DNA from: Planctomycetota bacterium
Lineage (GTDB): Bacteria; Planctomycetota; J058
Assembly (NCBI GenBank): GCA_023954375.1
Contig: JAMLIC010000006.1
Coordinates: 18,972 to 82,971 of the forward strand
Length of the DNA: 64,000 nt
Direction of reading: 5' to 3'
Made by a program: the position numbers and the translations under genes. The first letter of the stretch is position 1; every line of letters begins with the position of its first letter. Below the pieces are notes generated by a model. The model saw only the letters and a list, made by a program, of their open reading frames with translations, was not told where the DNA came from and did no database searches. Shown here in pieces: positions 37,329 through 54,484 of this stretch.

Positions 37329-37459
37329 TTACGGTCAGTGACCACCTCCTGCGGCCCCGGGGATAGCGCCCCCGGGGTCGCAGGAGCGTCTCCGCTCACC
37401 CCGCGCTGCGCGACAGGCCTTCGTGGGCCAGCCCGCCAGCTGCCGCGCAGCGGCTTAGT

Positions 37460-38599
37460 TCAACGCCCCAGGAACGCCTCGACCTGCCCGCGGACGTCCA
37501 TGCCGTCCTTGTAGCCCAGCTCGAGCAGGCGCGTCGTGTAGGTCTCCTCGAACGACAGGTAGCTGAGCACCTCGGACGCCTCCTCGGGGCTGCCCATGCC
37601 GCGCAGCAGGTAGCGCAGGACGCGCGGGAGGTGCCAGGCCTCGTCGCTGGCGATGTGCCCCAGGTCCTCCGAGGGCTGGATCGAGAGGAGCTCGATCGGC
37701 CGCGCCGGGGCGCCGGCCGGGACCATCCCGGTGACCTCGAGCATGCGGTTGACGCCGTTCAGGCGCTCGACGTCGTAGTCGACGGCGTCGAAGAACACGG
37801 CGTTGAGGAGCACGCCGAGGATCCGCGCGATCGTCGGCTGCACCGGCCAGGCCGCGTCGTCGTGCGGCCCCGGCCGGCGCCGCACGCCGACGACGATCAG
37901 CCGGTCCGCGCCCAGGTGGATCGCGGGCGAGAGCGGCGCCGTGTTGCGCAGGCAGCCGTCGCCGTAGAACGCGCCGTCCACCTCGACCGGCTCGAAGAAG
38001 ATCGGGATCGCCGACGACGCCATGACGTGCTCGACGCCGAGGGTCACCTCGCGGCTGAGCCGCCGCCGTCGCCGCCAGGGCCGGACCCGCCCGGCCGACT
38101 CGTAGAAGGTGGTCGTGTGGGCCGAGGCGTAGTCGGTCGCCGTCAGGGCCACCCCCGAGAGCACCCCCTGCTCGACGTTGCGCCGCAGGCTGGTGAACGG
38201 CACGGTCTCGGCGAGCAGCCGCCGCAGGGGGCGGGTGTCGAGGAGCGCCGTCGCCGGCGCGCCGCCGACGACCGGGCTCACGGTCAGCGTCCGCATCCAG
38301 CGCGCGCCGATGCGCCCGAGCGCGAGCGGGCTCGTGTCGTAGACCATCTCGGGCCGGAGCCGCCCCCACAGCTCGCACAGCCGGCGCGCCCCGCCGAGGA
38401 AGTCGTGGCCGAACGCGCCCAGGAAGGCGGCGTTGATCGCCCCCGCGCTCACCCCGGCGATCGCCCTGAACGGCGCCGCGATCCCCAGGTCGGCGGCGAT
38501 CTCGGCGAGCGCCCGCGCCACCCCCGCCTGGTACGCCCCCCGCGCGCCGCCGCCGGAGAGGACGAGGCCCATCGGCACGACCGACCGCGAGAGGACCAC
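37460..38599 (-). CDS. patatin-like phospholipase
   Basis: GGGxRG oxyanion motif (LSGGGARGAYQAG), nucleophile elbow GVSAG, catalytic DG (FYGDG). Likely start ATG 38572. Stop codon TAA lies inside the IS right inverted repeat. Confidence 0.85.
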   Translation of the reverse strand: MVLSRSVVPMGLVLSGGGARGAYQAGVARALAEIAADLGIAAPFRAIAGVSAGAINAAFLGAFGHDFLGGARRLCELWGRLRPEMVYDTSPLALGRIGARWMRTLTVSPVVGGAPATALLDTRPLRRLLAETVPFTSLRRNVEQGVLSGVALTATDYASAHTTTFYESAGRVRPWRRRRRLSREVTLGVEHVMASSAIPIFFEPVEVDGAFYGDGCLRNTAPLSPAIHLGADRLIVVGVRRRPGPHDDAAWPVQPTIARILGVLLNAVFFDAVDYDVERLNGVNRMLEVTGMVPAGAPARPIELLSIQPSEDLGHIASDEAWHLPRVLRYLLRGMGSPEEASEVLSYLSFEETYTTRLLELGYKDGMDVRGQVEAFLGR

Positions 38600-38696
38600 C
38601 CGGCGTCACCTCCGGGCTGGACCATAGCACGTCAGCTGTCCGAAGACGTAAGCGCTCCACCCGCCGCCGTCACGGTCGCCGTCCCGCCCCCGGTAG

Positions 38697-40079
38697 TCAC
38701 TGCGCCGACGGCGTCGACCTCGGTCCGGAGCGCTGCGCGCCTGACGATGGCGTGAGGCGAGGAGGGCGGTGCTCGATCCGAGCGCCGAGCTGGCGAGCGC
38801 GCCCATGGAGCCATGCGTCGAGGCTGCCGCCCATGTCGCCCTGCTGGGCCGCCGCGCGCAGGTGCTCGCGCTCTGACCGCTGGTCACGATGCGCGTCGGC
38901 CGCGAGCGCCAGGAGGGCGTGCGCCTCATGGAGCTGGACGGACCGATTGCGAGGACCCGCCGCGTCCTGGGCGCACCTCAGGAAGTCGTCGTCCGAGAGT
39001 CGCCCCAGCAGCCACGTGTACACGGCGCGCGCCCAGGGAGAGCTCGTGACCGGCGGCTCCGACGACGGGGGCCCGCCAAGGAGCGCGGCCCAGGTCCAGT
39101 CGAAGCCGTCGCCCGGTGCGACCTCGCCGAACGCCTGCCGCGCGCGTGCCCTGTCTCCGTCGAGCAGCGCCTGGAGGGCCTGCGCCAGACGCAGGCCGCC
39201 GTCTCGCTGGCCTGGCTCCCCGGCCAGACCGAGGTCATCGGCGGCGAGCGGATCTCCTCGGATCACGCGCGCGCCCCACCGCGCCACGAGCAGAGCGCTC
39301 GAGGCCTTCCTGTCCTTCGCCCTGGCGATGGCCTCCGTCAGCGACACGATCGCGCCCTCGAGCTCGCCTCGCTGACGCAGCAGCGTCGCGCGGAAGAGCG
39401 CCACCTCGGGTTCGTCCCCCGCCCCCTCGAGGGCGGTGAGCGCGCCGTCGACGTCCCATCGCTCGGCGAGCGCCTCGGCGTGCAGCACGTGGAGCACGTC
39501 GCCGCGCCGCCCCTGAGCGCGGACGATGTGCCCCACCTCCTCGAACGCGGCGTCCGCGGCGGGCTCATCGTCGATCGCGTCGGCGGTCTGACCCATCAGG
39601 AGCCACGCCCGCGCCCGCCACTCCGGAGCGCCGTAGCCGCTGCCGACTCGCTGCTCCCTCTCCGTGAGCTCCAGCACCTTGCAGGCATCCGAGTGCGCCT
39701 GCCGGCGCGCGCCACGCCGCTGGTGAGCGGACGCCCGCAGGTAGTAGGCGAACGCGTCGTCCGGGGCGCACGCGAGCGCATCGTCGGTCAGCGAGACGAC
39801 GGCCTCGAGATCCCCCGCCGCGAGACGGGCCGACGCACGCTCGAGGAGCTCCGGCGTCGGGTCCGGGATCCCGTCCCAGGTGAGGTTGAACACCCATCCC
39901 CAGCCCCAGGCGACGAACCGGCGCCACCACCCGAGCGACGGCGCGGCCGACTCGCAGCCGAGGGTCGGGCAGCGACGGGCCTGGTCCCAGCACGCGGCGT
40001 GGAGCCACGTTCGACATCGCGGACACGCGACCTCGGGCGCGCCATCGTGGCAGAAGGCGCAGCGCTGCGGGCCGTTCAT
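38697..40079 (-). CDS. hypothetical protein with N-terminal Cys-rich zinc-ribbon-like region and TPR-like helical body
   Basis: N-terminus CAFCHD…CPRCRTWLHAACW…CPTLGC. The remainder is Ala/Leu/Asp-rich helical repeats. Start is 7 nt downstream of the giant TPR gene stop, same strand. Confidence 0.55.
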   Translation of the reverse strand: MNGPQRCAFCHDGAPEVACPRCRTWLHAACWDQARRCPTLGCESAAPSLGWWRRFVAWGWGWVFNLTWDGIPDPTPELLERASARLAAGDLEAVVSLTDDALACAPDDAFAYYLRASAHQRRGARRQAHSDACKVLELTEREQRVGSGYGAPEWRARAWLLMGQTADAIDDEPAADAAFEEVGHIVRAQGRRGDVLHVLHAEALAERWDVDGALTALEGAGDEPEVALFRATLLRQRGELEGAIVSLTEAIARAKDRKASSALLVARWGARVIRGDPLAADDLGLAGEPGQRDGGLRLAQALQALLDGDRARARQAFGEVAPGDGFDWTWAALLGGPPSSEPPVTSSPWARAVYTWLLGRLSDDDFLRCAQDAAGPRNRSVQLHEAHALLALAADAHRDQRSEREHLRAAAQQGDMGGSLDAWLHGRARQLGARIEHRPPRLTPSSGAQRSGPRSTPSAQ

Positions 40080-40086
40080 GGTCTGG

Positions 40087-43000
40087 CTACCCCCGCGCCA
40101 GCTTCTTCCTCAGCTCCAGGTACCCCGGCGACACCGAGAACGCGAGCAGGTCGCGCAGCTCGGGGACGTCGCGGAACGCCTTGACCACGCCCTCGGTCTT
40201 CGTCGGCACGCGGCCGCGCAGCGACACGTTCGTGGCCAGGATCGCCTTCACGGCGGGCAGGGGGCCGCCGGCGGCGAGGAGGCCGGCGCGGCTGGCGGCG
40301 AGGAGGACGCCCTGGCGGAAGCCCTCGAGGTCGAGCTGGTCGCGCCCGCGCCAGAGCGCCTCGTGGACCGGCGCCAGCTCGCGCAGGACCTCGGAGGCCT
40401 TGCCCGCGGCCTTGACCATGGCGCGCACGGCCTTGTCGTCGTCGCCCTTGAACGCGCGCCCCGCCTCGCACGCCTTGAGGAGGCCCAGGAGGAGGCCGCG
40501 CACCTGCTCGAGCGGCAGGGCGCGGAAGACCTCGAGGCCGAGCTTGAGCGGGGCCACGGCGCGGGCGATCACGAAGGCCTTCTCGGGCTCGGAGAGCCCG
40601 GCGAACACCTCGGGGCAGAGGATGAGCGACGGCGTCTTCGAGTGGCCGAGGACCGGCTCGGGGCGGCGCCAGTCGGGCATCCAGTAGATGTCGAGCTGCG
40701 AGATGTCGAGCAGGTCGCACACCCGCTTGACCAGCCGGTGCTCGGGGAAGAGGTCGCCCTCGAGCGTGAGGCGCGCGCTCAGCCAGCCGATCCCGTGGCT
40801 CTTGAGGTCGTCGGGCACCTGCCGGAGGAGGAGCCCGCCGGCCGCGCGGACGAGGTCGCCGAGCGGCCCCTTGCAGGCGTCGGGCAGGAGCCGGGCGGCG
40901 AAGGCCTCGTCCTTCAGCCGCCCGCGCAGCGACGGGAGCTGACCGGCGGCGGCCGCGACCGCCCCCTCCTCCTCGGCCGTCGTCGCGCGCAGGACCGACA
41001 GCGCCTGCAAGGCCTGCCCCAGCGGGTCGGCCCTGCCGCCGGCGCGCCAGCCGTCGGCGAGGGCGCGGTAGGACTCGACCAGCAGCGGGTCCTCGGCCAG
41101 GAGCTCGCGCTGGACGCGCTCGATCCCGGCCACGTCCTTCAGCTCCAGGTAGAGCCGCGACAGCGCCGCCCGCGCGCCCGAGTGCCCGGGCTCGAGCTCG
41201 AGGACCCGCTCGTACTCCGCGGCCGCCTCGGGGGCGAGCCGCTGCTGGGCCAGGAGGTCCGCGCGGCGCAGGCGCAGCGCCGCCTCGTCGCCCTTGCCCC
41301 GCAGGGCGTCGGCCGCGACCCCGAGGGCGCGCGCCTGCGCCTCGAGGTCGCCCTCCGCCTCGAGCAGCCGCAGGAGCGAGTCGAGGGTGTGCCGCTCGCG
41401 CGGGTCGAGCACGAAGGCCTGGTGGAAGCAGCGGCGGGCGAGCTTGCGCTGCTTGAGGCGGTCGCGCACGACGCGCGCCAGGTTGGCGTAGAGCTCCGCG
41501 CGCTTGCGCCGGTCGGTCTCCAGCTCGATCGCCCGCGTCAGCTGCCGGACGGCGGCGCTCCAGCGCTCGGCGCGCCCGTGGATCTCTGCCAGGCGCCGCG
41601 CCGTGCGCGCCCGGTGCTCGCCGTCGATCGCGAGCGTCGCCTGGAGGTGCGCCGCGGCGGCGTCCGCGTCGCCGAGCGCGAGCTCGCAGACGTCGGCGAG
41701 CGCGAGCCGCGCCTGCACCTCGACCTGCGGCGGCGCCCCCGCGAGCGCGTACTCCAGGTGCCGCCGCGCCTCGCGCGGGTCCTTGCTCTCCAGCAGCTTG
41801 CCCAGCTCGAGCTGCGCCTGGGGGCTCCGCGGCGCCACGCGCAGGCCGCTCCGGTAGAGCTCGAGCGCCCGGTCGGTCTCCTTGAGCTTCGACAGCACGC
41901 GCGCGAGCACGAGCTGATGCTCGGCCCGGGCCACCGGCGGCCGCGTCTGGGCCACCAGCTCCTCGTAGACGCCGCGCGCCGCCGCCCAGCCGCCGCCCTG
42001 GACGCACAGCCGGCCCAGGTCCTCGAGCGCCGCGAGGTGGTCGGGGACGAGCTCGAGCGCCTGCCGATAGCTCTGGGCGGCCCCCTCGGCCCGGCCGGCG
42101 CGCTCGAGGAGCTGGCCCCGGGCCCACAGGAGCTCGGCCCCGCGCTGGGGGTCCTTCGGCAGCTCCGGCGAGCTGGCGACCCGCTCGAGGCAGGAGAGCG
42201 CGGCCGCCGCGTCGTCGGCGGCCCACGCCAGCTCGGCGAGCGCCGCGAGCGCCGGGAACAGGGTCGGCGAGCGCTGCAGCGCCTGCTCGTAGCGCTGGCG
42301 CGCGGCGGGGAACTGCCCGAGCGCCTCCCGCCGCACGTCGCCCGCGCGCACGAGCGCCTGCGCGGCGTCGCGCGGGTCCTGCTCGAGGTCGGCGACCTGG
42401 TCCTCGAGGCGCGCCAGCGCGTCCGCCGCCGACTCGTCGGCGCCGAGCGCGCCGGCGCCGCGGGCGTGCAGCGCGCGCGCCAGGCCCTTGAGCGCCGGCA
42501 GGTGCGTCGGCGCCAGGCCGATCGCCTCGCGGTAGCGCGCCTCCGCGCCCGCCACGTCGCCTCGCCGCTCGAGGAGCCCGGCGATCCTGGCGAGCAGGTC
42601 GCCGCGCTTGAACTCGGTCCGCGCGTGGGCGACGGCCTGCTCGTAGGTGCCGAGGAGGTCGTCCCACAGCCCGGCCGCCTCCTGCGCCGCCCCGAGCTGC
42701 GCGAGCGCCGCCTCGTGCGCCGGGTCGGCCTTGAAGGCCTCCGCCAGGGCCTCGAGCGCCTGCGCCTCCTTGCCCTTGCCCGGGCGGCGCCGCAGGACCT
42801 CGACCACCTCGACGAGGGCGTCCGCCCGCTCGGTCCCCTCGCGCAGCCCGGCGAGCCGCTTGAGCGCCCGGACCAGCGCCGCCTCGCCCTTGGCGTCGCG
42901 CGCCGTCCGCCGCAGGACCGTCACCGCGAGCAGCGCCGCCTCGATGCAGCGCGCGTCCTGCCCCAGCGCCTCCTCCGCGGCCTTCAGCGCCTCCTCCGGC

Positions 43001-46000
43001 CGGCCCAGCCGCTCGGCGTTGACCCGCGCCAGCTCGAGGCGCAGCCCGACCGTCTCCGGCCCGCGCGCCCGCGCCAGCCGCCGGTCGATGATCTGCGCCA
43101 GCTCGTCCCACTCGCCCAGGTCGCGCAGGAGGTCGGTGAGCGCCGCCAGCGCCTCCTCGTCCTGCGGCGCGAGCTCGAGCGCCGCGCGGTAGGCGGCCAG
43201 CGCGTCCTGCTTGCGGTAGAGCTTCGACGAGAAGACGGCGCCCAGGCGCTTGTGCAGGCGCACGGCCTCGCCGGCGTCGCCGCACAGCGGCAGGTCGCGC
43301 CGCAGCGTGTCGACGAGCCCCGACCAGTCGCCGCGCGCCTCCTGCACGCGCGCGAGGTCGCCCAGGAGGTTCCGGTCCTTCGGCGCGAGGTGGCTCGCCT
43401 CGCCGAAGAAGCGCGCGGCCGTGAGCAGGTCGCCCAGCTTCTCCTCGGCGAGGTGGCCGGCCCGGCGCAGGCGCGCCTCGCGCTGGCGCGTCCCCTTCAC
43501 CAGCCCGATCTCGAGGCGGAGCGTGTCGAGGAGCTCCGGCCAGCGCTCCGTCTTCTGGTACAGGTCGCGCAGGGCCTCGACCGCCTCCAGGCCGGCGGGG
43601 TTCAGCGTGACCGCGCGCTGGAGCGCCCGGGCCGCCTTCTCGGCGTCATCGAGGCGGTCGCGCAGGACCCGCCCGAGGAGCACGAGCGCGTCGTAGGCCC
43701 GCGGCCCGCGGCGCCCCGCCTGGCCCTCGTAGAAGGTCACCAGCTCGGCCCACCGCGCCTGCCCCGAGAGGAGGCGCTCGAGCTCCGAGGCCACCCGCGC
43801 GTCGTCGGGGACGAGCTGGTGCAGCCGCTGCAGGACCTCGATCGCCTGGTCGTGGCGCCCCAGCTTCTCCTCGAGCAGCGCGGCGCGCTCGAGGAGCAGG
43901 TCGCGCGCGTGCGGGGCGCGGCCGTCGGCCGCGCGCTGCTCGAGCACGTGCGCCAGCTCGGCGTGGCGCCCGGCGAGCCGGTAGGCCGCCTCGAGCGCCT
44001 CGAGCGCCTGCGCCAGGAGCGGGCCGCGCCCGAGCTCGCGGGCCGTGACGAAGGCGTCGATGGCCTCCGACAGCCGGCCGAGCTTCATCTGGTGCCGCCC
44101 GAGCTTGAGCGCGGCCTGGGCCCGCTGCGCGTCCTTGCGCGCCAGCGCCAGGAGCCGCTCGAGGACGACCAGCAGGAGGGCGTCGTCCTCGACCTCGGCG
44201 CACAGCGGCTCGAGCGCCTCCCAGGCCTCCTGGTCGGCCGGGTTCGTCGCCGCCGCCTCGCGGTAGGCGGCGATCGCGCCCGGCGCGTCGGCGAGGCGCA
44301 GGGCGCGGATCTTCGCCGCCCGCCGGAGCATCCAGCCGGCGCGCGCCGGGTCGTCGACGGCCCGGGCCAGGAGCACCGTCGCGTCGGCGAGCTCGCCCCA
44401 CTGGCTGAGCTTCTCGGCCACGCGCGCGTAGGTGCCCAGCGCGTCCGCGTCGGACGGCATGAGCTCGCACGCGGTGCGCGCCAGCCCCAGCGCCCGCTGG
44501 AGCGACGCCTGGCGCGCGTCGCCGGCCGCCTTCTCTGCCAGCGCCTCGCGCAGGCGCGCCGCCTCCAGCGCGAGCAGCCGTCGCCGCTCGGCCTCGGTGA
44601 CGAGCCCCAGCTCCTGCTCGAGCGTCTCGGCCAGCCCCTCGTCGTCGCCGAGCGCGCGCAGGCCCCGGGCCAGCCCGCGGACCGCCTCGAGGTCGTCGGG
44701 CGCGTCGGCCAGGACCTTGCGGAAGCAGGCCACCGCCCGGCGCAGGTCGGAGAGCGCCTCCTCGTACAGGTGCGCCAGCTCGCGGCGCGCCTCGAGGCGG
44801 TCGACCGGCGACGGGGTGTGCTCGGCCAGCGCCTCGAGCGCCTGCGCCAGGGCGCGGAAGTCGAGCAGCTCGCGGGCGACGTCGGCCATCCCGCGCAGGG
44901 CGACGAGCGACACGGCGTCGAGGTGCAGGGCCTCGCCGTAGGCCTTCGCCGCGCCCTCGAGGTCGCGCAGCTCGTGGCGGAGCTGGCCCACGTGGGTCTT
45001 CAGCCACACGAGCCGCCCGCGGTCGACCTTCGCCGTCGCCTCGAGCTCGCAGACGCGGACGACCTCGGCCAGGCGGCCGGCCTGCCGGTGGATCGCCGCG
45101 AGCGCCCGGGCCGCGGGCACGCTCTGCGGGTCGAGCGCGAGCGCCCGCTCGAACGCCCGCGCCGCCTCCTCCTCCTGGCGCAGCTCGCGCTGGAGCAGGT
45201 GCCCCAGCTCGGTCTCCGCCGCGGCGCGGTCGAGCGCGCCGAGGTCCTCGCGGCCGGCCAGCGCGGACAGCGCCTGCGCCAGGTCGGCGTGGCGCCCCGC
45301 CTGGCGGTAGAGGCGGACGAGCGCCCGCAGGACGCGCACGAGGAGCTCGCCCGGCACCCCGGCGCGCCCGGCCCGCTCGCGCGCGGCCTCGAGCCGGGCG
45401 GTCGCCGCATCGGGCGCGCCCTGCTCCTCGTGGACGGCGGCCTCCTCGGCGAGCGCCTGGACCGCCTCGAGCTCGGTCGTGGCCCGGGCCGCCCGCTCGG
45501 CGAGCAGCCGCGCCAGCTCGGGCAGTCGCCGCCCGGCGCGGTAGAGCGCCTCGAGCCCCGCCCGCGCGGCGTCGTCGCCCGCGTCCGCCTCGAGCGCCTC
45601 GAGCCAGCAGCCCTCGGCCGCCGCCGGGTCGCCGAGCGAGCCGCGGTGCAGCTCGGCCATGCGGTGGCGCAGGCGCTGCACCTCGGCCGCGGCGCCCTCC
45701 TTGCCCAGCCGGCGCGCCTCGCCCTCGAGGTAGCCGAGGAGCTCCCGGTGCCGGGCCTCGCGCAGGTAGAGCCCCTCGAGCGCCTGGCGCACGAGCCCGT
45801 CCTGCGGGTCGCGCCGGTGGAGCTCGGCGTAGACCTCGATCGCCCGCCCGGGCGTGTAGACCGGTCCGCTCGCCAGCTCGCCCACGCCCTTGAGGAGGAG
45901 CGCCTCGTCGCCCGGGTCGCGGGCGTGCTTCAGCGCGCGCTCGGTGGCGTCGAGGAGCGCCGACGCGTCGCCGGCCGCCTTGGCCAGGCGCATGAGCAGC

Positions 46001-49000
46001 CCGGCCAGGACGCGCGCCTCGTCGGGCTTGGTCCGCTCGACGAGCTCGAGCGCCGCGCGCACGCACACGGCCGCCGCCGCCGGCCGCCGCAGCTTCGTCT
46101 CCAGGATCCGCGCCTGCTCGAGGAGGAGGCGCGCCCGCTCGCCGTCGTCGGCGGTGACCTCGGCCAGCCGGCCGAGCACCTCCTGGTGCGCCGCGTGCTC
46201 GCCGAGCGCGCCGCGCAGGCGCGCCAGCTCGGCCAGCGTCTCGGGGTCGCGGGGCGCCTGCTGGAGGAGGAGCTCGAGCGTCGCCGCGGCCAGCGCCTGC
46301 TGGCCGAGCCGCTGCTCCTCGACCTGGGCGGCGCGGCGGAGGAACGCCGGCGCCTCCTCGCTCAGCGCCCGGGCCAGGCCGGCGCGGCGGTGCAGCGTGC
46401 GCGCCAGCTCCTGCCAGGCCTCGCGGCGGGCGTAGATCCGCTCGAGCGCGTCGAGCGGCCCCGCCCGCAGCGGGTCGCGGCGCGCCGCGCGCTCGTGGGC
46501 GCGCGCGGCCGCCTCGGGGTCGGCCTCCTCGAGCAGCGCCCCGGCGCGCTCGTAGAGGTCGGACGCGGCCCGGTCGTCCTCCTCGACGACGGCCAGCGAC
46601 TGGAGCACGTCGGCCAGCTTCGCCGCGGCGCCGGCAGCCTCGTACAGCTGCGCCAGCTGCCCGAGCGCCGCCTTGTCCTGCGGGGCCAGCGCGCGGGCGC
46701 GCTCGAGCTCCTCGGTCGCCGCGGCGGCGTCGCCCAGCCGGTCGCGCAGGACGGCCGCGCGCTCGAGGCGCCGCGCCAGCTGCGCGGCCCGCTCGCGGGC
46801 CACGTCGGCCTCCCGCGCGAGCAGGTCGGCCGCCTCCGCCCAGCGCTCCGCCTCGAGCAGGTAGCGGCGCAGGAGCGCCAGCACCGAGGCGTTGTCGGGC
46901 ACCTCCTCCAGCGCCTCGCGCAGGGCCTGGATCGCCTCGTCGCGCCGGCCCAGCCGCTCGTGCGCGTCGGCCACCTTGAGCGCCCACTGGGCGCGCTTGC
47001 GCGGGTCGACCTCCTGGTCGCGCAGGCGCTGGCGCACGCGCACGAGGTCGGTCCAGGCGCCGGCCGCCTGGTGGACGCGCTCGAGGCCGACGAGCGGGCG
47101 CGGGTCGTCGGGCGCCCGGGCGGCGGCCTCGGCGTAAGCCGTCGCCGCCTCGGCGCCGCGGCCGAGGTGCCGCTCGAGGACCTCGCCCAGCTCGACGTAC
47201 AGCGCGGCGAGCGCGCGGGCATCGGCCTCCCCCGATGCTGCGTGGCGCGCCGCCATCGCGGCGGCCTCCGCCCGGAGGACGCGCGCCAGCTCCTCCCACG
47301 CGTGGGCGGCGGCGTAGAGGCGGCGCAGCCCCTCGGTCGCGGCCGGGTCACCCGGGCGCAGGGCCAGGACCTGCTCCCAGTGGCCGCGCGCCTCCTGCGC
47401 GCTCTTCAGCTCGTCCTCGGCCAGGCGCGCCATGCGCTCGTGCAGGGCGGCGCGCTCGTCCGCCGAGGGGGCGTGCGCGGCGAAGCGGCGCAGGAGGTCG
47501 TAGAGCCGCGCCGGCTCGCCGGCCTGCACGAGCAGGCGCTCGAGGGCCTCGAAGGCCGGCCGGCAGCGCGGGTCGCGCGCCAGCGCCGCCTCGAGGAGCG
47601 CCTCGGCGCGCGGGCGCAGGTCGAGCGCGGCGTAGCGCTCGGCGCCGGCGAGGGCCCGGGCGACGAGGCGCTCGCCCGCCTGGGCGCCCTCCTCCTGCGC
47701 GAGGTGGTCGACCTCGCGCGCCAGCGCGTCGGCCAGGCGCCGGTCGTCCTTCACGCGCGCGCACAGCGCCTGGAGCGCCTCGAACGCGGCGGGGTCCGGG
47801 GCGGCGTCGAGCGCCCGCCCCCAGGCCTGGATCGCGTCGTCCGGGCGGCGAAGCCGCTCGTCGAGGGCGCGGGCGGCGCGCTGCAGGAGCGCGGCCTTCT
47901 CGCCCTTCGCGCGGGCGAAGGCGGCGCGCTCCTCGAGCGCCGGGACCAGCTCGTCCCACAGCTCCTCCTGCTCGTAGAGCTCGAGGAGCGGGTCGAGGAG
48001 CTCGGGGGAGGGCTTGCGCCGCAGGGCGGCGCGGTAGCTGTCGATCGCCTGGCGGGGCAGGCGGAGCTGCTCGCGCTCGACGCGCGCCCGCTCGTCGAGG
48101 AGGCGCGCCGCCTTGTGCGGGTCCTTGGTGAGGTCGGCCAGCGCCCCGAGCGCCGGCGCGAGCTCCTGCCACCACTCGCAGCGGCGGCAGAGCGAGGTCA
48201 GCCGCTCGAGGACGTCCGCGCGCCGCGGGGCGGCCTGCGCGGCCGCGCGCAGCTCGTCGGCCGCGGCCGGCAGGTCGCGCAGCTCCTCCTCGAGGAGCTT
48301 CGCCCGCTGCAGGCGCAGCTCGACCGCCTGGGCCTCGTCGGTCACCGCCCGGCGCTTGCGGTCGAGCGCCGCGGCCAGCCGGGGCCAGTCGCGCGCCGCC
48401 TCGTGCAGGGCGGCGAGCCCGTCGAGCGCCTCGAGGGCGTCCGGATCCTCCTCGAGCGCGGCCTCGAAGTGCTGCGCCGCCGCCTCGCCCTCGCCGCGCG
48501 CCGCCTTGCGCCGGGCCAGCTCGATGAGGCTCCGCGCCGCGCTGCGCGTCCGGGGCACGACCTCCCGCACCCGGAGGAGGAGCGCCTCGTAGGCCTGCTC
48601 GCGCTTCAGCTCGAGGAGGAGCTTGGGCAGCTCGCCCAGGGCGACGCACTGCGGGTCGCCGAGCGCGAGCACCTCCTGGTAGAGGTCGGCGGCGCGGGCG
48701 GCGTCGCGCAGGTGGTGATGGACGATCAGCGCCGCTTGCCGCAGGCGCTCCTCGCGCCGGGCGGGCTCCGCCGAGCGGCGCGCCTGGCACTCGTACGCGC
48801 CGGCGAGCGCCGCCCAGTCGCGCGCCTCGAGGTGCAGGTCGCGCAGGCGGCGCCAGGCGTCCTCGTCGTCGGGGGCCAGGCGCAGGACCTCCTCGAGCGC
48901 GGCGACGGCGCCGGCCGGGTCCCCCAGGCGCTCCTGCCGCAGGGCGGCGAGGTGCTTGCCCAGCGCCACGCGATGGTCGGCCGCGGGCGTCGCCTCGAGC

Positions 49001-52000
49001 TGGCGCGCGAGCGTCTCCACCAGCGCCGCCGCGTCGGTCTTCGGGTCGAGCGTGCGGGCGCGGCCGCGGAGCGCCCGCAGGTCGGCGGGCGCGAGCGCCA
49101 GGGCCGCGTCGAAGGCCTCCCGCGCCGCGGGGGGCTGCTTCAGGTGCTCGAGGCGCACCTCGCCCAGGGCCACGAGGCGCTCGACGCGCTGCCGCCGGTC
49201 GGCCTCGAGCTCGCCGAGCCGGGCGAGCGCCGCCGCCAGCTCCGCCCAGGCGCGCTGACCGCGGAGGAGCGGGGCCAGCCCGCGCAGGGCCTCAACGCTG
49301 TCGGGGTCGTGCTTCAGGGCCTGCTCGTAGGTGGCGCGGCCGCCGCCCTTGTCCTTGCGCTGCCCGGCGGCGAGGCGGACCAGCAGCGCGGCCTTCCGCT
49401 TCGGGTCCGGCTCGAGCTCGGCCTCGCGCGCGGTCCAGCGCGCCAGGGCGGCCCGGTCGTTGGCCTCGCGGGCGAGGGTCGCCAGCCAGCGCACGGCCTC
49501 GAGGCGCGCCGGGTCGGCCTCGAGGGCGCGCTCGAACAGCTGGCGGGCGCGCAGGGCGTCGTCCTCGCGCTGGCGCCGCACGCGCCCGGCCTCGACCAGG
49601 AGGTCCGCCCGGCGCGCGCCGTCCTGCTCGAGGCCGCCGGCGGCCTCGAGGTGGTCGGCGAGCGGCGCGCCCAGGCTCATGCGGCGCTCGATGCGGAGCA
49701 GGCAGCGCAGCGCCTCGCGCTCGTCCGGGCCCCAGGCGCTCGGCGCGCCGGCCCCCAGCGCCTCGAGCAGGAGGGCGCGGGCGGCCGGCAGGTCGCCGAG
49801 CTGGAGGCCGCGCAGCTCGGCCTCCTCGCGGAGGACGGCGAGGCGCTCCGGGCGGTCGAGCTCGGCCGGCTCGGCGCCGCGGCGGGCGGCCAGGGCGTCT
49901 GCGAGCGGCCCCGGGCGGTTGGCGGGCCGCAGGGCGCGGACGCGCGCCTCGCGGCACCGCGCCCAGCGCGGGCGCGCCGCCTCGGCCTGGTCGAACGCGG
50001 CCAGCGCATCGTCGAGGCGGCCGAGCCGGGCGAGCATCTCGCCGCGGCGCACGAGCAGCGCGGCCCGCTCGCCCTGCGGCAGGGCCTCCGCCGCCGCGGC
50101 GAGGGCCACCTCGAGGCGGTCGAGCCGCCCGAGGCGCGACAGGAGGGCGAGCAGGGCCTCGTGGCCGGGCGCGTGGGTCGGCGAGGCGGCGATCGCGGCG
50201 CGGTAGGCGTCCTCCGCGCTGGTCGGGTCGCCCGCCTGCTCCTGCACCTGCCCGCGCTCGACCTGGAGGGCGGCGGCGCCGGCGGCGTCGCCCTCGGCCG
50301 CCGCGGCCTCGGCCGCGTCGCCGAGGACGCCGAACGCGCGCGGGAGGGCGTCGGCGCGCACGAGCACGCGCCCGAGGCGCGTGAGCAGGTCGCGCGAGCG
50401 CGGCAGCACCGCCAGCGCCTCGTCGAGGGTCACGGCCGCCTCGACGGGCGCGCCGAGGTCGCGCTCCTGCACCTCGGCCGCCTCGACGAGCCGCTTCACC
50501 CGCACGGCCGGGGGGCCGCCCAGGGCGGCCGCCTGGCGCAGGACGCGCACCAGCTCGTCGTGGCGCCCGAGCCGGCGCTCGACCCCGGCGAGCTGCTCCC
50601 ACGCCGGGTCGTCCGGGTCGCGCAGCCCGGCGGTGAGCGCCTCGAGGGCGCGCCCGGCGCGCGGGAGGTCGTCGAGCTCCTCGTCGCACACGGCCGCGAG
50701 CTCGCGGCGGCAGCCCGCCGGGTCGAGGTCCGGCGCGGGGGGCGCGGGGAGGGCGGCCGCCTCCTCGAGGAGCCGCGCGAGGTCGCCCCAGCGCTGCGTG
50801 CGTCGGTAGAGGCGGCGGAGGCCCTGGAGGGCGGCCGCGTCGGTCGGGTCCTGGGCGAGGACGCGCTCGAGCGCGGCGACCGCCGCCGGCGGCAGGGCCA
50901 GCGGGCCCTCGGCGAGCGTCGCCTGGTGGCGCCACATGTCGGCGCGCAGGGCGGGGTCGGCCGCCTCCGCGGCGACCTGCTCGACCGCGTGCAGGAGCTC
51001 GCGCTGGGCCGGCAGGCCCGCCTCGGCGGCGAGGGCCGCGAGCCGCTCGAACGCCTCGCGGTGGTCGGGGACGGCGCGCAGCGCCCGGTGCCAGGCCGCG
51101 CGCGCGCGGGCGGGGTCCTGCAGCCGCGCCTCGCACAGCCGCGCCAGGTCGGCCGCGAGCGCGCCCGTGCGCGGGCGGTCGCCCTCGACGGCGACGAGCG
51201 CGGCGTCGAGCCGCTGCGCGGCGTCGGCCGCGCGGTCGGCGTCGAGCAGGAGCCGCACGGCCCCCTCCAGCGCGCCCGCGTCGGCCGGCTCCTCGGCGAG
51301 GACCTCCTCGTAGGCGGCCAGCGCGCCGGCCGCGTTGCCGCGCCGCTCCTCGAGGCCGGCCAGCTCGAAGCGGATCCGGCGCTGCGCGGTCGGCTCGGGC
51401 TCGAGGCGCGTCCAGGTCGCCAGCGCCTTCGCCAGGCCGGCGTCGTCGCCGAGGGCGCGGGCCGCGTCGACCCGCAGGCGGACGGCCTCGAGCGCGCCGT
51501 CGCCGTCGGGGACGAGGGCGAGCGCGGCGTCGAGCGCCTCGACCGCGGCCGGGGCCTGGTCGAGGCGCTCGAGGCGCACGGCGCCGAGCTGGCGCAGGGC
51601 GGCGGCCCGCGCCGCGGGGTCGCGCTCGAGCTCCGCCAGGCGCGAGAGCGCGTCGGCCAGCGGCTGCCAGCGCTCCTCGGCGCGCAGGAGCGGGGCGAGG
51701 TCGCGCAGGGCGGGCGTGGGGTCGGCGGGCCCGAGCGCGAGGAGCTGCTCGAGCGCCCGGGCGGCGGCGGGGCCGTCCTTCAGCTGGTCGCGGCGCACGA
51801 GGGCCAGCTCGCGCAGCCAGACCTTCTGGTTGTTGTCGCCGCGGGCGGCGCCGGCCACGCGCCGCTCGAGCACGCGGGCCACCTCGGCCCAGTCGCCCGC
51901 GCGGCGCGCGATCAGCTCGAGGCGCTCGAGCGCCTGGCCGTCCTTCGGGTCGAGCGCCACGACCTGCGCCAGCGCCTCGGCGGCGCGGGCGTCGTCCTTG

Positions 52001-53277
52001 AGCCGGAGCTCGAACACCTCCGCCAGGCGCTTGCCGAGCGCCACGGCGACCCGGCGCTCCTGCTCCGAGCGCCGCGGGTCGACGATCAGCTCGCGCTCCA
52101 GCTCGAGCGCGCGCGCGTGCTCGGGCCAGTCGCCGAGCTTGCGCGTGATCGTCTCCATGAGCTTGAGGGCGCCCACGTGGCGCGGCCGCAGCTCGACCGC
52201 GCGCTTGACGGCTCGCAGGGCCGCGCGCCCCTCGCGCGCCCGGTCGCGCTGCTCGGCCGCGCGCTCCCAGCGCTCGGCCCGCTCGGCGTCCTTGAGCCCG
52301 GGCAGCTCCGCCTCGAGCTCGAGCGCGTGGGCCACCACCCGCGGGTCCTTGAGCTTCTCGCCGAGCCCCATGAGCTGCTTGACGGCGAGCGCGTCCTTCG
52401 GCTCGAGCTCGAGCGCCCGCTGCAGGTGCTTGACCGCCTGCTGCGGCGCGTTGAGCGAGGTGTCGTGGATCGTGGCCAGCCGCTTGAGGAGGCGCACGCG
52501 CTCCTTCGGGTCGTCCTGGGCCACCTCGAGGTGCTGGAAGAGGCCCCGCGCGGCCAGGGCCCACTCACCGCGGCGCTCGAAGAAGCGGGTGATCGTGCCG
52601 AGGATGCGCGCGTCCTTCGGGCCGGCGTCGAGGGCGGCGGCGAACGCCCGCGTCGCCTCCTCGGGGTCCTTGGCGCTCTCGTCGAGGATCGTCCCGGCGA
52701 GGAAGTGGTAGATCGCGGCCTGCTTGTCCTGCGCCGCGCCGGCGAGCGCCCGGTAGGCCTGCACGAGCGCGTCCCAGCGCTGGTGCTTCTTGGCCAGCTG
52801 CTCGAGGTCGTCGAGCGGCAGGCGGCTCTTCGGGTTGGCCTCGATCGCCTGCAGGAGGGCCGCGAGCGCCTCCTGCGGCTTGCCCTCCTCGCGCAGGAGC
52901 CGGCCGAGCTCGTGGTGGAGCTGCCCCAGGCGTCGCGCGTCCTTCGTGACCCCGACCTCGAGCGCCAGGACCCGCCGCGCCCCCGCGCGGTCCTTGCGGT
53001 CGAGGTGCATGGCCTTGAGCGCGCCGAGCGCCGGCAGGTAGGTGCGCCGCACCTCGAACGCGCGCAGGAAGAAGCCCTCGGCCTGCTCGGCGCGCGAGAG
53101 ATGGTCGAGCGAGACCTCGCCCGCGCGGTAGAGCATGCGCTCGCGGAGGCCGTCGTCGTCGACGGCGTCGGCGCGCGCCGCGTAGAGGGAGACCAGGTCG
53201 GCCCACCGCTGGGCGCCCTGGAGCCGCTGCTCCTCATCCTGGAAGAGCTTCGCGCTGCGGACGACGCTCTCGTTCAT
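40087..53277 (-). CDS. giant tetratricopeptide-repeat (TPR) protein, 4396 aa, with a distinct non-repeat C-terminal domain (~270 aa)
   Basis: Single 13.2-kb ORF. ATG at 53277. Continuous TPR-like periodicity (…AxxxYxxALxxxPxxxxAL…) over about 4100 aa. The last ~270 aa (…DIYWMPDWRRPEPVLGHSKTPSLILCPEVF…) are non-repetitive. The equally long antisense ORF 39880..54201 is R/G/E/A low-complexity and judged spurious. Confidence 0.8.
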   Translation of the reverse strand: MNESVVRSAKLFQDEEQRLQGAQRWADLVSLYAARADAVDDDGLRERMLYRAGEVSLDHLSRAEQAEGFFLRAFEVRRTYLPALGALKAMHLDRKDRAGARRVLALEVGVTKDARRLGQLHHELGRLLREEGKPQEALAALLQAIEANPKSRLPLDDLEQLAKKHQRWDALVQAYRALAGAAQDKQAAIYHFLAGTILDESAKDPEEATRAFAAALDAGPKDARILGTITRFFERRGEWALAARGLFQHLEVAQDDPKERVRLLKRLATIHDTSLNAPQQAVKHLQRALELEPKDALAVKQLMGLGEKLKDPRVVAHALELEAELPGLKDAERAERWERAAEQRDRAREGRAALRAVKRAVELRPRHVGALKLMETITRKLGDWPEHARALELERELIVDPRRSEQERRVAVALGKRLAEVFELRLKDDARAAEALAQVVALDPKDGQALERLELIARRAGDWAEVARVLERRVAGAARGDNNQKVWLRELALVRRDQLKDGPAAARALEQLLALGPADPTPALRDLAPLLRAEERWQPLADALSRLAELERDPAARAAALRQLGAVRLERLDQAPAAVEALDAALALVPDGDGALEAVRLRVDAARALGDDAGLAKALATWTRLEPEPTAQRRIRFELAGLEERRGNAAGALAAYEEVLAEEPADAGALEGAVRLLLDADRAADAAQRLDAALVAVEGDRPRTGALAADLARLCEARLQDPARARAAWHRALRAVPDHREAFERLAALAAEAGLPAQRELLHAVEQVAAEAADPALRADMWRHQATLAEGPLALPPAAVAALERVLAQDPTDAAALQGLRRLYRRTQRWGDLARLLEEAAALPAPPAPDLDPAGCRRELAAVCDEELDDLPRAGRALEALTAGLRDPDDPAWEQLAGVERRLGRHDELVRVLRQAAALGGPPAVRVKRLVEAAEVQERDLGAPVEAAVTLDEALAVLPRSRDLLTRLGRVLVRADALPRAFGVLGDAAEAAAAEGDAAGAAALQVERGQVQEQAGDPTSAEDAYRAAIAASPTHAPGHEALLALLSRLGRLDRLEVALAAAAEALPQGERAALLVRRGEMLARLGRLDDALAAFDQAEAARPRWARCREARVRALRPANRPGPLADALAARRGAEPAELDRPERLAVLREEAELRGLQLGDLPAARALLLEALGAGAPSAWGPDEREALRCLLRIERRMSLGAPLADHLEAAGGLEQDGARRADLLVEAGRVRRQREDDALRARQLFERALEADPARLEAVRWLATLAREANDRAALARWTAREAELEPDPKRKAALLVRLAAGQRKDKGGGRATYEQALKHDPDSVEALRGLAPLLRGQRAWAELAAALARLGELEADRRQRVERLVALGEVRLEHLKQPPAAREAFDAALALAPADLRALRGRARTLDPKTDAAALVETLARQLEATPAADHRVALGKHLAALRQERLGDPAGAVAALEEVLRLAPDDEDAWRRLRDLHLEARDWAALAGAYECQARRSAEPARREERLRQAALIVHHHLRDAARAADLYQEVLALGDPQCVALGELPKLLLELKREQAYEALLLRVREVVPRTRSAARSLIELARRKAARGEGEAAAQHFEAALEEDPDALEALDGLAALHEAARDWPRLAAALDRKRRAVTDEAQAVELRLQRAKLLEEELRDLPAAADELRAAAQAAPRRADVLERLTSLCRRCEWWQELAPALGALADLTKDPHKAARLLDERARVEREQLRLPRQAIDSYRAALRRKPSPELLDPLLELYEQEELWDELVPALEERAAFARAKGEKAALLQRAARALDERLRRPDDAIQAWGRALDAAPDPAAFEALQALCARVKDDRRLADALAREVDHLAQEEGAQAGERLVARALAGAERYAALDLRPRAEALLEAALARDPRCRPAFEALERLLVQAGEPARLYDLLRRFAAHAPSADERAALHERMARLAEDELKSAQEARGHWEQVLALRPGDPAATEGLRRLYAAAHAWEELARVLRAEAAAMAARHAASGEADARALAALYVELGEVLERHLGRGAEAATAYAEAAARAPDDPRPLVGLERVHQAAGAWTDLVRVRQRLRDQEVDPRKRAQWALKVADAHERLGRRDEAIQALREALEEVPDNASVLALLRRYLLEAERWAEAADLLAREADVARERAAQLARRLERAAVLRDRLGDAAAATEELERARALAPQDKAALGQLAQLYEAAGAAAKLADVLQSLAVVEEDDRAASDLYERAGALLEEADPEAAARAHERAARRDPLRAGPLDALERIYARREAWQELARTLHRRAGLARALSEEAPAFLRRAAQVEEQRLGQQALAAATLELLLQQAPRDPETLAELARLRGALGEHAAHQEVLGRLAEVTADDGERARLLLEQARILETKLRRPAAAAVCVRAALELVERTKPDEARVLAGLLMRLAKAAGDASALLDATERALKHARDPGDEALLLKGVGELASGPVYTPGRAIEVYAELHRRDPQDGLVRQALEGLYLREARHRELLGYLEGEARRLGKEGAAAEVQRLRHRMAELHRGSLGDPAAAEGCWLEALEADAGDDAARAGLEALYRAGRRLPELARLLAERAARATTELEAVQALAEEAAVHEEQGAPDAATARLEAARERAGRAGVPGELLVRVLRALVRLYRQAGRHADLAQALSALAGREDLGALDRAAAETELGHLLQRELRQEEEAARAFERALALDPQSVPAARALAAIHRQAGRLAEVVRVCELEATAKVDRGRLVWLKTHVGQLRHELRDLEGAAKAYGEALHLDAVSLVALRGMADVARELLDFRALAQALEALAEHTPSPVDRLEARRELAHLYEEALSDLRRAVACFRKVLADAPDDLEAVRGLARGLRALGDDEGLAETLEQELGLVTEAERRRLLALEAARLREALAEKAAGDARQASLQRALGLARTACELMPSDADALGTYARVAEKLSQWGELADATVLLARAVDDPARAGWMLRRAAKIRALRLADAPGAIAAYREAAATNPADQEAWEALEPLCAEVEDDALLLVVLERLLALARKDAQRAQAALKLGRHQMKLGRLSEAIDAFVTARELGRGPLLAQALEALEAAYRLAGRHAELAHVLEQRAADGRAPHARDLLLERAALLEEKLGRHDQAIEVLQRLHQLVPDDARVASELERLLSGQARWAELVTFYEGQAGRRGPRAYDALVLLGRVLRDRLDDAEKAARALQRAVTLNPAGLEAVEALRDLYQKTERWPELLDTLRLEIGLVKGTRQREARLRRAGHLAEEKLGDLLTAARFFGEASHLAPKDRNLLGDLARVQEARGDWSGLVDTLRRDLPLCGDAGEAVRLHKRLGAVFSSKLYRKQDALAAYRAALELAPQDEEALAALTDLLRDLGEWDELAQIIDRRLARARGPETVGLRLELARVNAERLGRPEEALKAAEEALGQDARCIEAALLAVTVLRRTARDAKGEAALVRALKRLAGLREGTERADALVEVVEVLRRRPGKGKEAQALEALAEAFKADPAHEAALAQLGAAQEAAGLWDDLLGTYEQAVAHARTEFKRGDLLARIAGLLERRGDVAGAEARYREAIGLAPTHLPALKGLARALHARGAGALGADESAADALARLEDQVADLEQDPRDAAQALVRAGDVRREALGQFPAARQRYEQALQRSPTLFPALAALAELAWAADDAAAALSCLERVASSPELPKDPQRGAELLWARGQLLERAGRAEGAAQSYRQALELVPDHLAALEDLGRLCVQGGGWAAARGVYEELVAQTRPPVARAEHQLVLARVLSKLKETDRALELYRSGLRVAPRSPQAQLELGKLLESKDPREARRHLEYALAGAPPQVEVQARLALADVCELALGDADAAAAHLQATLAIDGEHRARTARRLAEIHGRAERWSAAVRQLTRAIELETDRRKRAELYANLARVVRDRLKQRKLARRCFHQAFVLDPRERHTLDSLLRLLEAEGDLEAQARALGVAADALRGKGDEAALRLRRADLLAQQRLAPEAAAEYERVLELEPGHSGARAALSRLYLELKDVAGIERVQRELLAEDPLLVESYRALADGWRAGGRADPLGQALQALSVLRATTAEEEGAVAAAAGQLPSLRGRLKDEAFAARLLPDACKGPLGDLVRAAGGLLLRQVPDDLKSHGIGWLSARLTLEGDLFPEHRLVKRVCDLLDISQLDIYWMPDWRRPEPVLGHSKTPSLILCPEVFAGLSEPEKAFVIARAVAPLKLGLEVFRALPLEQVRGLLLGLLKACEAGRAFKGDDDKAVRAMVKAAGKASEVLRELAPVHEALWRGRDQLDLEGFRQGVLLAASRAGLLAAGGPLPAVKAILATNVSLRGRVPTKTEGVVKAFRDVPELRDLLAFSVSPGYLELRKKLARG

Positions 53278-53397
53278 GCCCCGCCTGTCGTTGTCGAGGA
53301 AGCGCCGCTAGTCGTAACTCTTGCGGAGGTAACAGCTAGGAGCGTCGACAGGCTAGCACCGCGGCCGAGGGCGGGCAACGCCGCCCGGACGGGGGGC

Positions 53398-54006
53398 TCA
53401 GACGGGGCCCTGGGATGGCCGCAGGGCCGCGAGCCGCCGGAGGTTGAGCCAGTTGATGAGGAAGTGGGCCACGATCGGGGCCAGGAGCGAGCCCGACCAG
53501 GCGGCCAGCAGGCCGAAGAGGAGCCCGGCCACGACGGCGAAGGCCGTCCACGGGCGCAGCTCGGGGACCAGCGGCACGTGGAGGAGGCCGAAGACGAGGC
53601 TCGCGGCGACGATCCCGGCCGCCGCGGCGGCGGGGCCCTCGCCCAGGGGGCCCGTGAACGCGCCGATGAGGACCGGCTGGAGCCACCCGCGGAAGAAGGC
53701 CTCCTCGCCGATGCTCGAGTAGACGGCCACGACGAGCGCCTTCTCCCGGTCGAGCGACGGACCCAGGAGGTCGGGGCTGGTGAGGACGTTGCGGAGGTAC
53801 TCGGCCATGCGGCGGTACCAGCCGACGCCCTCGAGGAGGCGGCCGGCCTGCACGACGCCGAGCGCCAGGGCCACGGCCGCGGCGAGCGGGCCCCACAGGA
53901 GGGCGGGCGTGTCGGGGGCGCGGAAGAGCGACGGCGCGCCGCTCACGCGCACGAGGACGGCCGCGACCACGAGCATGCCGGCGTAGATGAAGAGGAAGCG
54001 GTTCAT
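53398..54006 (-). CDS. CPBP family intramembrane glutamic endopeptidase (CAAX protease-like)
   Basis: Multi-TM 202-aa protein with motif 1 EEAFFRGWLQ, motif 2 FGLLH and motif 3 HFLINWLN. Confidence 0.8.
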   Translation of the reverse strand: MNRFLFIYAGMLVVAAVLVRVSGAPSLFRAPDTPALLWGPLAAAVALALGVVQAGRLLEGVGWYRRMAEYLRNVLTSPDLLGPSLDREKALVVAVYSSIGEEAFFRGWLQPVLIGAFTGPLGEGPAAAAAGIVAASLVFGLLHVPLVPELRPWTAFAVVAGLLFGLLAAWSGSLLAPIVAHFLINWLNLRRLAALRPSQGPV

Positions 54007-54049
54007 CGCGGGGGGGCCAGGGTAGCAGCCTCCGCGCCCCGGCCGGCGG

Positions 54050-54484
54050 TCATCGGGACAGCAGCGCCTCGAGGCGCGGCCGCGGGAGCGCGCCGCTCTC
54101 GACGGCGGCGAGCGCGCCGCCGCGGAACACGGCGAAGGTGGGGACGCCCCGCACGCCGACCTGCGCCGCGTGGCGCGTGTGGCGGTCGGTGTCGACCTTG
54201 ACCACGATCAGCCGACCGGCGTGGGCGCGCGCGAGGTCGGCGACGACGGGCGCGACCATCCGGCAGGGGCCGCACCAGGTGGCGTGGAAGTCGACGAGCA
54301 CCGGCACGGGCGCGCCGCGGATGAGGCGCTCGAGCGCGTCGTCATCGACGTCGACGGGGGTGCCCGCGAGGTCGAGCGCCGCGCGGCAGCGCCCGCACAC
54401 GGGTCGGTCCTCCGCCCGCTCGGCCGCGACGCGGTTGATCCCGCCGCAGGCGGGGCAGCGGTAGACCAGCGACGCCGTCGTCAT
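54050..54484 (-). CDS. trxC: thioredoxin with N-terminal zinc-finger extension (thioredoxin-2 type)
   Basis: N-terminal CPACG…CGRC zinc ribbon, then a thioredoxin fold with WCGPC active site. Confidence 0.85.
   Translation of the reverse strand: MTTASLVYRCPACGGINRVAAERAEDRPVCGRCRAALDLAGTPVDVDDDALERLIRGAPVPVLVDFHATWCGPCRMVAPVVADLARAHAGRLIVVKVDTDRHTRHAAQVGVRGVPTFAVFRGGALAAVESGALPRPRLEALLSR

Follow-up and report, generated by a model that had tools for sequence, protein, structure and literature searches.

The DNA analyzed here, referred to as the window, is a stretch of 64,000 nucleotides from a Planctomycetota bacterium (contig JAMLIC010000006.1 of assembly GCA_023954375.1) that carries on its minus strand a 13.2-kb gene for a giant protein made up almost entirely of tetratricopeptide repeats (TPRs). 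Genes for a thioredoxin-2 type protein and a CPBP-family intramembrane protease precede the giant gene in the same direction, and it is followed by an open reading frame (ORF) with features of a Zn-ribbon protein, a gene for a patatin-like phospholipase, and a mobile element (Table 1). The product of the giant gene has been deposited as a hypothetical protein, and no prior description of a giant TPR gene in Planctomycetes was found in the literature searched. The original prediction for this locus had proposed one uninterrupted giant gene encoding a TPR array and a distinct C-terminal domain, with co-directional thioredoxin-2 and CPBP genes upstream and a patatin gene downstream. This description stands in all of these respects: the coordinates and spacings of the giant ORF and its neighbors hold in the ORF listing, the families of the giant protein and of the thioredoxin-2, CPBP, and patatin proteins agree with Pfam and NCBIfam, the frame has a GC content of 0.993 at third codon positions and is kept open in a relative of 88% identity, and the protein matches only TPR families of Pfam ahead of an end domain of 311 residues. 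The peptide YWMPDWRRPEP, which had been quoted in the prediction, is located at residue 4198.

Table 1. Positions in the window of the giant gene, its parts, and the adjoining features
Feature	Coordinates	Strand	Description
Giant gene	40087..53277	-	4396 aa, ATG start; probable GltI/AgmK-superfamily TPR scaffold
TPR array	41023..53277	-	Residues 1-4085; about 57 units of about 72 aa
C-terminal domain	40090..41022	-	Residues 4086-4396, 311 aa; predicted zincin (M48-like) fold without catalytic residues
Antisense shadow ORF, not a gene	39880..54201	+	4773 aa; longer than the giant gene
CPBP (Rce1-like) intramembrane glutamic protease	53398..54006	-	202 aa; gap of 120 nt; Rce1-like 65.9 bits
Thioredoxin-2 type gene (trxC-like)	54050..54484	-	144 aa; gap of 43 nt to CPBP gene
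Zn-ribbon ORF	38697..40079	-	460 aa; N-terminal Cys/His cluster; starts 7 nt after the giant stop
Patatin-like phospholipase	37460..38599	-	379 aa; 97 nt beyond the Zn-ribbon ORF; Pfam Patatin 96.7 bits
IS91-family mobile element	34915..37464	.	2.55 kb; 31-nt terminal inverted repeats
IS91 terminal inverted repeats	34915-34945 and 37434-37464		Inverted repeat I6; 87% complementary
IS91 tyrosine recombinase	36402-37328	-	Phage_integrase 4.6e-44; extra ORF in the element
IS91 Y2 transposase	35175-36395	-	Y2_Tnp 3.2e-53, Zn_Tnp_IS91 2.1e-28

The GC content is 70-83% across the window and 76-80% in the region of the giant ORF, where the plus strand is also open over a great length. In the minus-strand frame the GC contents of the first, second, and third codon positions (GC1, GC2, and GC3) are 0.88, 0.50, and 0.993 and stay constant in every 300-codon block, whereas those of the plus-strand ORF are 0.984, 0.509, and 0.869, a mirror of the minus-strand values. 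Since codon-position GC decides between the two strands, the minus frame is taken to be the true coding frame. The plus-strand ORF was rejected as a real gene on account of its mirrored GC profile and its implausible composition, which is rich in Arg, Leu, Ala, and Gly and nearly lacks Lys, Phe, Asn, and Met. At very high GC content, a shadow ORF of this kind can mislead gene callers that choose by ORF length. In the region of the giant gene the DNA has no tandem repeat with a period longer than 27 bp, which argues against repeat mis-assembly. The encoded protein has a mass of 479.8 kDa and an isoelectric point of 6.1, and it contains neither a signal peptide nor a transmembrane segment (hydropathy maximum, 1.35). 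The 13.2-kb ORF is a genuine gene whose product, of about 480 kDa, is conserved and cytoplasmic.

With the C-terminal 311 residues as the query, an exhaustive phmmer search for relatives of the protein matched 82 proteins; the full-length giants among them have 4398, 4372, 4398, 4487, 4563, and 4496 residues. A word-indexed protein search with the same domain, alone or as a profile, returned only 3-4 short fragments and seems to be blind to very long proteins. The window protein is 72% identical to P0004 and 52% identical to P0008, in each case in a single high-scoring segment pair covering residues 1-4396, and 47% identical to P0007 over residues 9-4390; its identity to P0012, P0015, and P0016 is 27-31%, in two collinear segment pairs each. 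At the DNA level L001 (JAHBXY010000001.1), a contig of a metagenome-assembled genome (MAG) labeled Planctomycetota, is 87-89% identical over the last 10.9 kb of the gene and keeps the frame open. The alignment of 3622 codons is interrupted by only 3 gap events, all of them in frame, and the ratio of nonsynonymous to synonymous substitution rates (dN/dS) is 0.185; judged by this comparison, the giant gene is under purifying selection. In a metagenomic locus with 59-67% identity, L014, the gene is split into two frames at about 5650-6090, with a gap that corresponds to residues from about 2858 to 2954 of the window protein, which may reflect either a sequencing error or a pseudogene.

Conservation is not confined to one part of the protein. 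An alignment of seven orthologs contains 368 invariant residues and is evenly conserved along its full length, and the longest insertion or deletion among the seven is 36 residues, about one TPR. The internal repeats of the giant protein are 28-42% identical to each other, and self-comparison reveals no regular higher-order offset, so that both a recent expansion of the repeats and a higher-order organization were rejected. The combination of low internal identity and even positional conservation implies that the array is ancient and that each unit has been conserved at its own position. The orthologous group has conserved both its length (4372-4563 residues) and its repeat-by-repeat order. 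The proposal that the giant gene is an artifact, either a chance open frame in GC-rich DNA or a product of chimeric or collapsed-repeat assembly, is hardly credible given these data. It could draw on the giant ORFs found on both strands in DNA of 76-80% GC and on the frameshift that splits the gene in L014, but it would have to accommodate a GC3 of 0.993 together with a GC2 of 0.50, the dN/dS of 0.185, full-length collinear orthologs in at least six independent assemblies, and the lack of long DNA repeats.

Each unit of the array, of about 72 residues, consists of two TPR-like hairpins, and the autocorrelation of the sequence peaks at a lag of 72. The only Pfam families that match the giant protein above the gathering score are TPR families (TPR_8, 102.3 bits; TPR_1, 87.8 bits; TPR_2, 84.3 bits; and TPR_19, 65.9 bits). 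The domain that follows the array is a constant feature of the family, in that no more than about 13 residues follow it in any of the 82 phmmer matches, whether protein or fragment, and it is preceded by TPR families only in each of the eight distant members tested. It is marked by the motifs F-x-x-[GA]-[RK], R-x-G-L-L, and F-x-V-S-x-x-Y-x-x-L-R, and its invariant residues are Arg, Ser, and Gly, not His or Glu. Comparison of the 311-residue domain with Pfam yielded no family even at E ≤ 10, Peptidase_M48 included; a profile of the domain matched only designed proteins among PDB sequences, and a Foldseek search of the PDB gave no significant match.

A structural model of the C-terminal domain was generated with AlphaFold2 from an alignment of 22 sequences (A1), with a mean predicted local distance difference test score (pLDDT) of 92.8 and a predicted template modeling score (pTM) of 0.91. 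In the model, a group of helices is followed by a three-stranded sheet (residues 111-135), a long helix (residues 145-162), and further helices. The helix after the sheet bears the F-x-x-[GA]-[RK] motif, which in the window protein reads EKAFVIARAVAPLKL. From the model it is concluded that the domain is a pseudoprotease with a zincin (M48-like) fold that has lost its metal-binding and catalytic residues. The fold would be common to the window domain and to the M48 peptidases BepA/YfgC, HtpX, Ste24/ZMPSTE24, and the Geobacter protein Q74D82 (3c37), but the window domain is without HExxH or a third ligand and has conserved Arg or Lys residues instead. The window protein also differs from these peptidases in being cytoplasmic rather than periplasmic or membrane-bound, and in having its TPRs on the N-terminal side of the domain and about 100 times more of them. 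Zincins such as BepA are reported to hold their substrates on an edge strand (PMC8423444).

The resemblance to BepA raises the alternative of an active, TPR-guided metalloprotease, in which the TPR array recruits substrates to a C-terminal M48 protease. This is very improbable, because no H[ED]xxH motif is present in the last 330 residues of any of the 83 sequences checked, so that HExxH and HDxxH are both lacking, because a peptidase match in Pfam is missing even at the permissive threshold given above, and because the invariant residues are Arg, Ser, and Gly instead of His or Glu. No prior description of an M48 pseudoprotease joined to TPRs was found in the literature; the putative assignment of the C-terminal domain of this family as a zincin pseudoprotease appears to be the first in the literature searched.

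A relationship of the giant protein with GltI, also known as AgmK, is indicated by the same domain. GltI of Myxococcus xanthus (MXAN_4863) is a giant TPR protein of 3822 residues (PMC11761067), or 4132 residues in an older annotation (PMC3169522), that is the proposed scaffold on the cytoplasmic side of the Agl-Glt gliding machinery; it is predicted to have six binding sites for the FHA domain of GltG and two for the GYF domain of GltJ and so to scaffold several motor units (PMC11761067). Among the relatives of the window protein, P0029, a metagenomic TPR protein of 3558 residues, is encoded directly between gltG-like and gltJ-like genes. Its neighbors include a protein of 103 residues that matches CglF/GltF (88.1 bits; cut-off, 90), an FHA protein of 591 residues that matches GltG (335.9 bits) and the AgmX/PglI C-terminal domain (118 bits; cut-off, 40), and a protein of 444 residues that matches GltJ (80.6 bits). 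The order gltF-gltG-...-gltI-gltJ is that of the G1 cluster of M. xanthus (PMC3169522), and the P0029 locus, which is a gliding-motility cluster, matches it. A profile constructed from eight Planctomycete-type C-terminal domains, with P0029 left out (A2), was aligned with the C terminus of P0029 by hhalign with a probability of 98.6% (E = 1e-15; 275 columns), and the window protein is about 25% identical to P0029 over the last 1900 residues. Because it shares its C-terminal domain with a protein in the GltI position, the window protein is placed in the GltI/AgmK superfamily, of which it appears to be a distant member.

GltI and the window protein are alike in being giant, cytoplasmic, and almost purely TPR, with a sizeable helical C-terminal domain. 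They differ in that the window group has its own conserved length of 4372-4563 residues, belongs to a different phylum (represented here by a Planctomycetes MAG), has no glt or agl genes nearby, and has recurring neighbors of other kinds, namely a CPBP protease and, in distant members, a GT5 glycosyltransferase. No gene of the 64-kb window matches a glt or agl family in Pfam or NCBIfam, and no glt or agl genes were seen beside the orthologs of 4.4-4.6 kilo-amino acids (kaa) in L002-L005, L007, and the P0016 contig. The labels given to the source MAG and to the MAGs of its close relatives are Planctomycetes or Planctomycetota, and the planctomycete-type family DUF1570 is present in related loci, which places these genomes beyond the published distribution of gltI, reported only in Myxococcales and Bdellovibrionales (PMC3169522). 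The window protein is accordingly not called a GltI ortholog: it lies in the Planctomycetes lineage without glt or agl genes nearby, and the phmmer search returned no match of the size of GltI.

The members of the family outside the orthologous group bear on the same question. TPR proteins of about 1.7-2.0 kaa from Myxococcota and other phyla (MGC4113431.1 and HEY3449894.1) and a protein of 2660 residues from Chrysiogenetes (MCB0220608.1) have the same architecture of a TPR series followed by the C-terminal domain. The members of about 1.7-2.0 kaa are less than half the length of the window protein and stand alone in housekeeping neighborhoods; their C-terminal domains are 21-28% identical to that of the window protein, with which they are collinear only at the C-terminal end. 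One member of 1687 residues, also in a housekeeping neighborhood, had been deposited under the name "Adventurous gliding motility protein K." This name, together with the architecture and C-terminal domain that are common with P0029, would be compatible with the window protein being a true GltI/AgmK ortholog that functions in an Agl-Glt-type gliding or envelope-transducer machine whose other genes lie elsewhere in the genome. We regard this as unlikely in view of the lack of glt and agl genes in the window and beside the orthologs, the restriction of reported gltI genes to Myxococcales and Bdellovibrionales in contrast to the Planctomycetes lineage found here (PMC3169522), a similarity to P0029 of no more than about 25% in the last 1900 residues, and the inclusion in the family of members of 1.7-2.0 kaa in housekeeping contexts. 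A length-conserved Planctomycete subfamily outside glt clusters, as distinguished here, has no description that could be found in the literature searched.

The surroundings of the giant gene were compared in 11 related loci (L001-L005, L007-L010, L014, and the P0016 contig), three of which were obtained from a metagenome scan with profile A2 and at least one from a scan of genome contigs with a single protein. The view downstream of the giant gene is at least 0.8 kb in 10 of these loci and only about 120 nt in L003. On the upstream side of the window gene, the CPBP protein has intact motifs (EEAFFR101, FGLLH139, and HFLIN181) and several hydrophobic segments, and the thioredoxin has the motifs WCGPC70, CPAC10, and CGRC30, with scores of 83.3 bits for Thioredoxin, 34.5 bits for Zn_ribbon_Thio2, and 116.8 bits for the NCBIfam TrxC model (cut-off, 125). 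Next to the giant gene of L002 is a co-directional CPBP gene with 63% identity, and next to that of L003 a divergent one with 50% identity; there is none in L004, and the gene thus recurs in two of the three close relatives with a visible upstream flank. On this comparison the CPBP gene is the only neighbor that recurs beside the giant gene, and no description of it as such was found in the literature searched. The thioredoxin gene was not seen in L003, the only relative where this can be checked, and a glycosyltransferase gene lies beyond the CPBP gene instead. The distant giants (L005, L007, and the P0016 contig) have upstream a GT5/GT1 glycosyltransferase gene on the opposite strand and an ORF of 66-72 residues.

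On the downstream side, the original prediction had tied the giant gene to the patatin and Zn-ribbon genes and had envisaged a single operon, from trxC through the CPBP, giant, and Zn-ribbon genes to the patatin gene, whose giant product would assemble or regulate the phospholipase for predation, development, or defense. Within the window the five genes are indeed co-directional, with gaps of 43, 120, 7, and 97 nt, the catalytic motifs of the patatin are intact, and no convincing terminator was found between the genes, although promoter and terminator scans were uninformative at such a GC content. The relatives, however, give a different picture. Neither the patatin nor the Zn-ribbon gene is present in the visible flanks of any of the 11 loci, including the relative of 88% identity, and tblastn searches with the two window proteins gave nothing adjoining the giant gene in any relative; the sole match, a Cys-rich stretch of 42 residues, lies in L007 at a distance of 8 kb on the upstream side of the giant gene. 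In L002 and L014 the giant gene is directly followed by folD, and other genes are downstream in L004, L005, L007, the P0016 contig, L008, L009, and L010. Moreover, the Zn-ribbon ORF has no detectable homologs and a lower GC3, an insertion sequence abuts the patatin gene, and no defense-system model matches. The operon is therefore distinctly unlikely, and the closeness of the giant gene to a phospholipase gene looks accidental. Of the earlier suggestion of a scaffold in a large complex, the scaffold remains plausible through the homology to P0029, and the link with the patatin and Zn-ribbon genes is not supported. The original prediction had named a consistent lack of these genes beside homologs as a refuting result, and this is what the loci compared show.

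Two details of these flanks may be recorded. In L001 the similarity to the window ends 18 nt before the stop codon of the giant gene. Positions 11000-11875, beginning 64 nt beyond that codon, hold 12.6 tandem copies of a 70-bp repeat (91% match), and the contig ends shortly thereafter. As it is tandem and without spacers, this repeat was rejected as an array of clustered regularly interspaced short palindromic repeats, and no copy of it was found in the window. A Kelch-repeat gene is present downstream of the giant gene in L005 and in the P0016 contig.

The genes downstream of the giant gene in the window have properties of their own. For the Zn-ribbon ORF, which had been described as Zn-ribbon/TPR-like, the position and the 7-nt gap are as predicted, and the family call is weak, since the Pfam matches are all sub-threshold (Prok-RING_1, 16.5 bits; cut-off, 29.1; TPR families also below cut-off). 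A search of 5.8 billion proteins retrieved only the protein itself (P0095, [quoted passage not shown]). Its GC3 is 0.88 compared with 0.99 in its neighbors, and the ORF appears to be lineage-specific and outside the conserved unit. The patatin has intact motifs (GGGARG16, GVSAG49, and DGA208/DGC214) and thus the fold and the Ser-Asp dyad that are also found in CapV and its relatives of the cyclic oligonucleotide-based antiphage signaling system (CBASS). It differs from CBASS-type effectors in having no cyclase or sensor partner present and in scoring far below the curated cut-offs of the defense phospholipase models (CBASS_lipase, 33.6 bits versus 200; DS2_1, 21.5 bits versus 400); PADLOC gave weak generic matches only. 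The right terminal repeat of the IS91-family element overlaps the patatin stop codon. The patatin, Zn-ribbon, and IS91 genes are best seen as lineage-specific neighbors and would not be parts of one system with the giant gene. The stretch from the patatin stop to the recombinase start contains a strong GC hairpin (CTCCTGCGACCCCGGGG...CCCCGGGGCCGCAGGAG), and just outside the left end of the element, at 34661-34805, there is an AT-rich inverted repeat composed of 7-nt units (GCTAACA/TGTTAGC), with arms of up to 48 nt that are 85-92% complementary, which is very unlike the surrounding DNA of 76% GC.

Elsewhere in the window, a minus-strand gene at 30621-33380 encodes a protein of about 920-970 residues that resembles the Major Vault Protein (MVP_shoulder, 1.2e-19; Vault_3; Vault_4) and has no match to an NCBIfam or PADLOC family; the adjoining gene for a protein of 597 residues (28467-30260, minus strand) has no Pfam match. 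Two adjacent SPFH/Band-7 genes (20039-21594, minus strand) and an NfeD gene (23450-24829, plus strand) are present in the same window. Ser/Thr protein kinases are encoded three times in the 64 kb, at 382-2334 (minus), 17308-20070 (plus), and 55925-57292 (minus); one of the kinases is fused to a receiver domain and is encoded 1.4 kb upstream of trxC, and a GAF-PAS histidine kinase is encoded at 57400-59109 (plus). Ser/Thr kinase genes also occur near family members in L006 and L007. The segment 11451-14275 is of low complexity and 83% GC, with long ORFs and coding-like GC on both strands and no family match, and gene calls in it are ambiguous.

Taken as a whole, the observations are probably best explained if the giant protein is a length-constrained cytoplasmic scaffold of the GltI/AgmK superfamily that ends in a dead-protease domain and belongs to no phospholipase operon. 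The protein is a continuous α-solenoid of about 57 double-TPR units capped by the pseudoprotease domain of 311 residues, and the solenoid may serve as a long scaffold or ruler of roughly 0.1 micrometer with many position-specific docking sites. The scaffold role is suggested by the homology with the protein in the GltI position and by the published model of GltI, and the length is scaled from the figure of about 1100 Å per 3822 residues (PMC11761067). The dead-protease domain could act as an end module that binds peptides or proteins by means of the former substrate cleft, and the adjoining CPBP intramembrane protease is a candidate membrane partner.

Several points weigh against this explanation. 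The F-x-x-[GA]-R motif was mapped onto the HExxH helix by the order of secondary-structure elements in the model. The adjacency of the CPBP gene is seen in only three of four close loci (the window and two of three relatives) and is missing in the distant giants. No protein of 3.8-4.1 kaa is found among the 82 phmmer matches, and the link to GltI proper depends on one positional ortholog from a metagenome. It should also be recognized that the scaffold role of GltI itself comes from structure prediction (PMC11761067).

A more specific proposal, which is considerably more doubtful than the explanation just given, is that the Planctomycete giants are a separate and ancient branch of the GltI superfamily that forms a membrane-tethered ruler or cytoskeleton-like scaffold of about 0.1 micrometer, the M48-like end of which docks on or regulates the CPBP protease. 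If true, this would bring a Ste24-like fold and an Rce1-like enzyme together in a bacterium, and the approximately 57 double-TPR units, each conserved individually, would hold partners in a fixed order along the cell envelope without dependence on gliding.

The locus provides a caution for the reading of gene neighborhoods, in that short gaps between genes on the same strand suggested a phospholipase operon for which comparative genomics gave no support. Repeat proteins rarely keep both their length and the order of their repeats so strictly over deep divergence, and this conservation points to a function that is length-dependent or coded by position. To find the partners of GltI-like proteins, one could start from the conserved Arg residues of what was once the substrate cleft. 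More generally, with the window protein and its orthologs, giant scaffolds of the GltI/AgmK type are found outside gliding clusters and, it seems, outside the Myxococcota as well, and this spread suggests that the role of the family is more general than motility.

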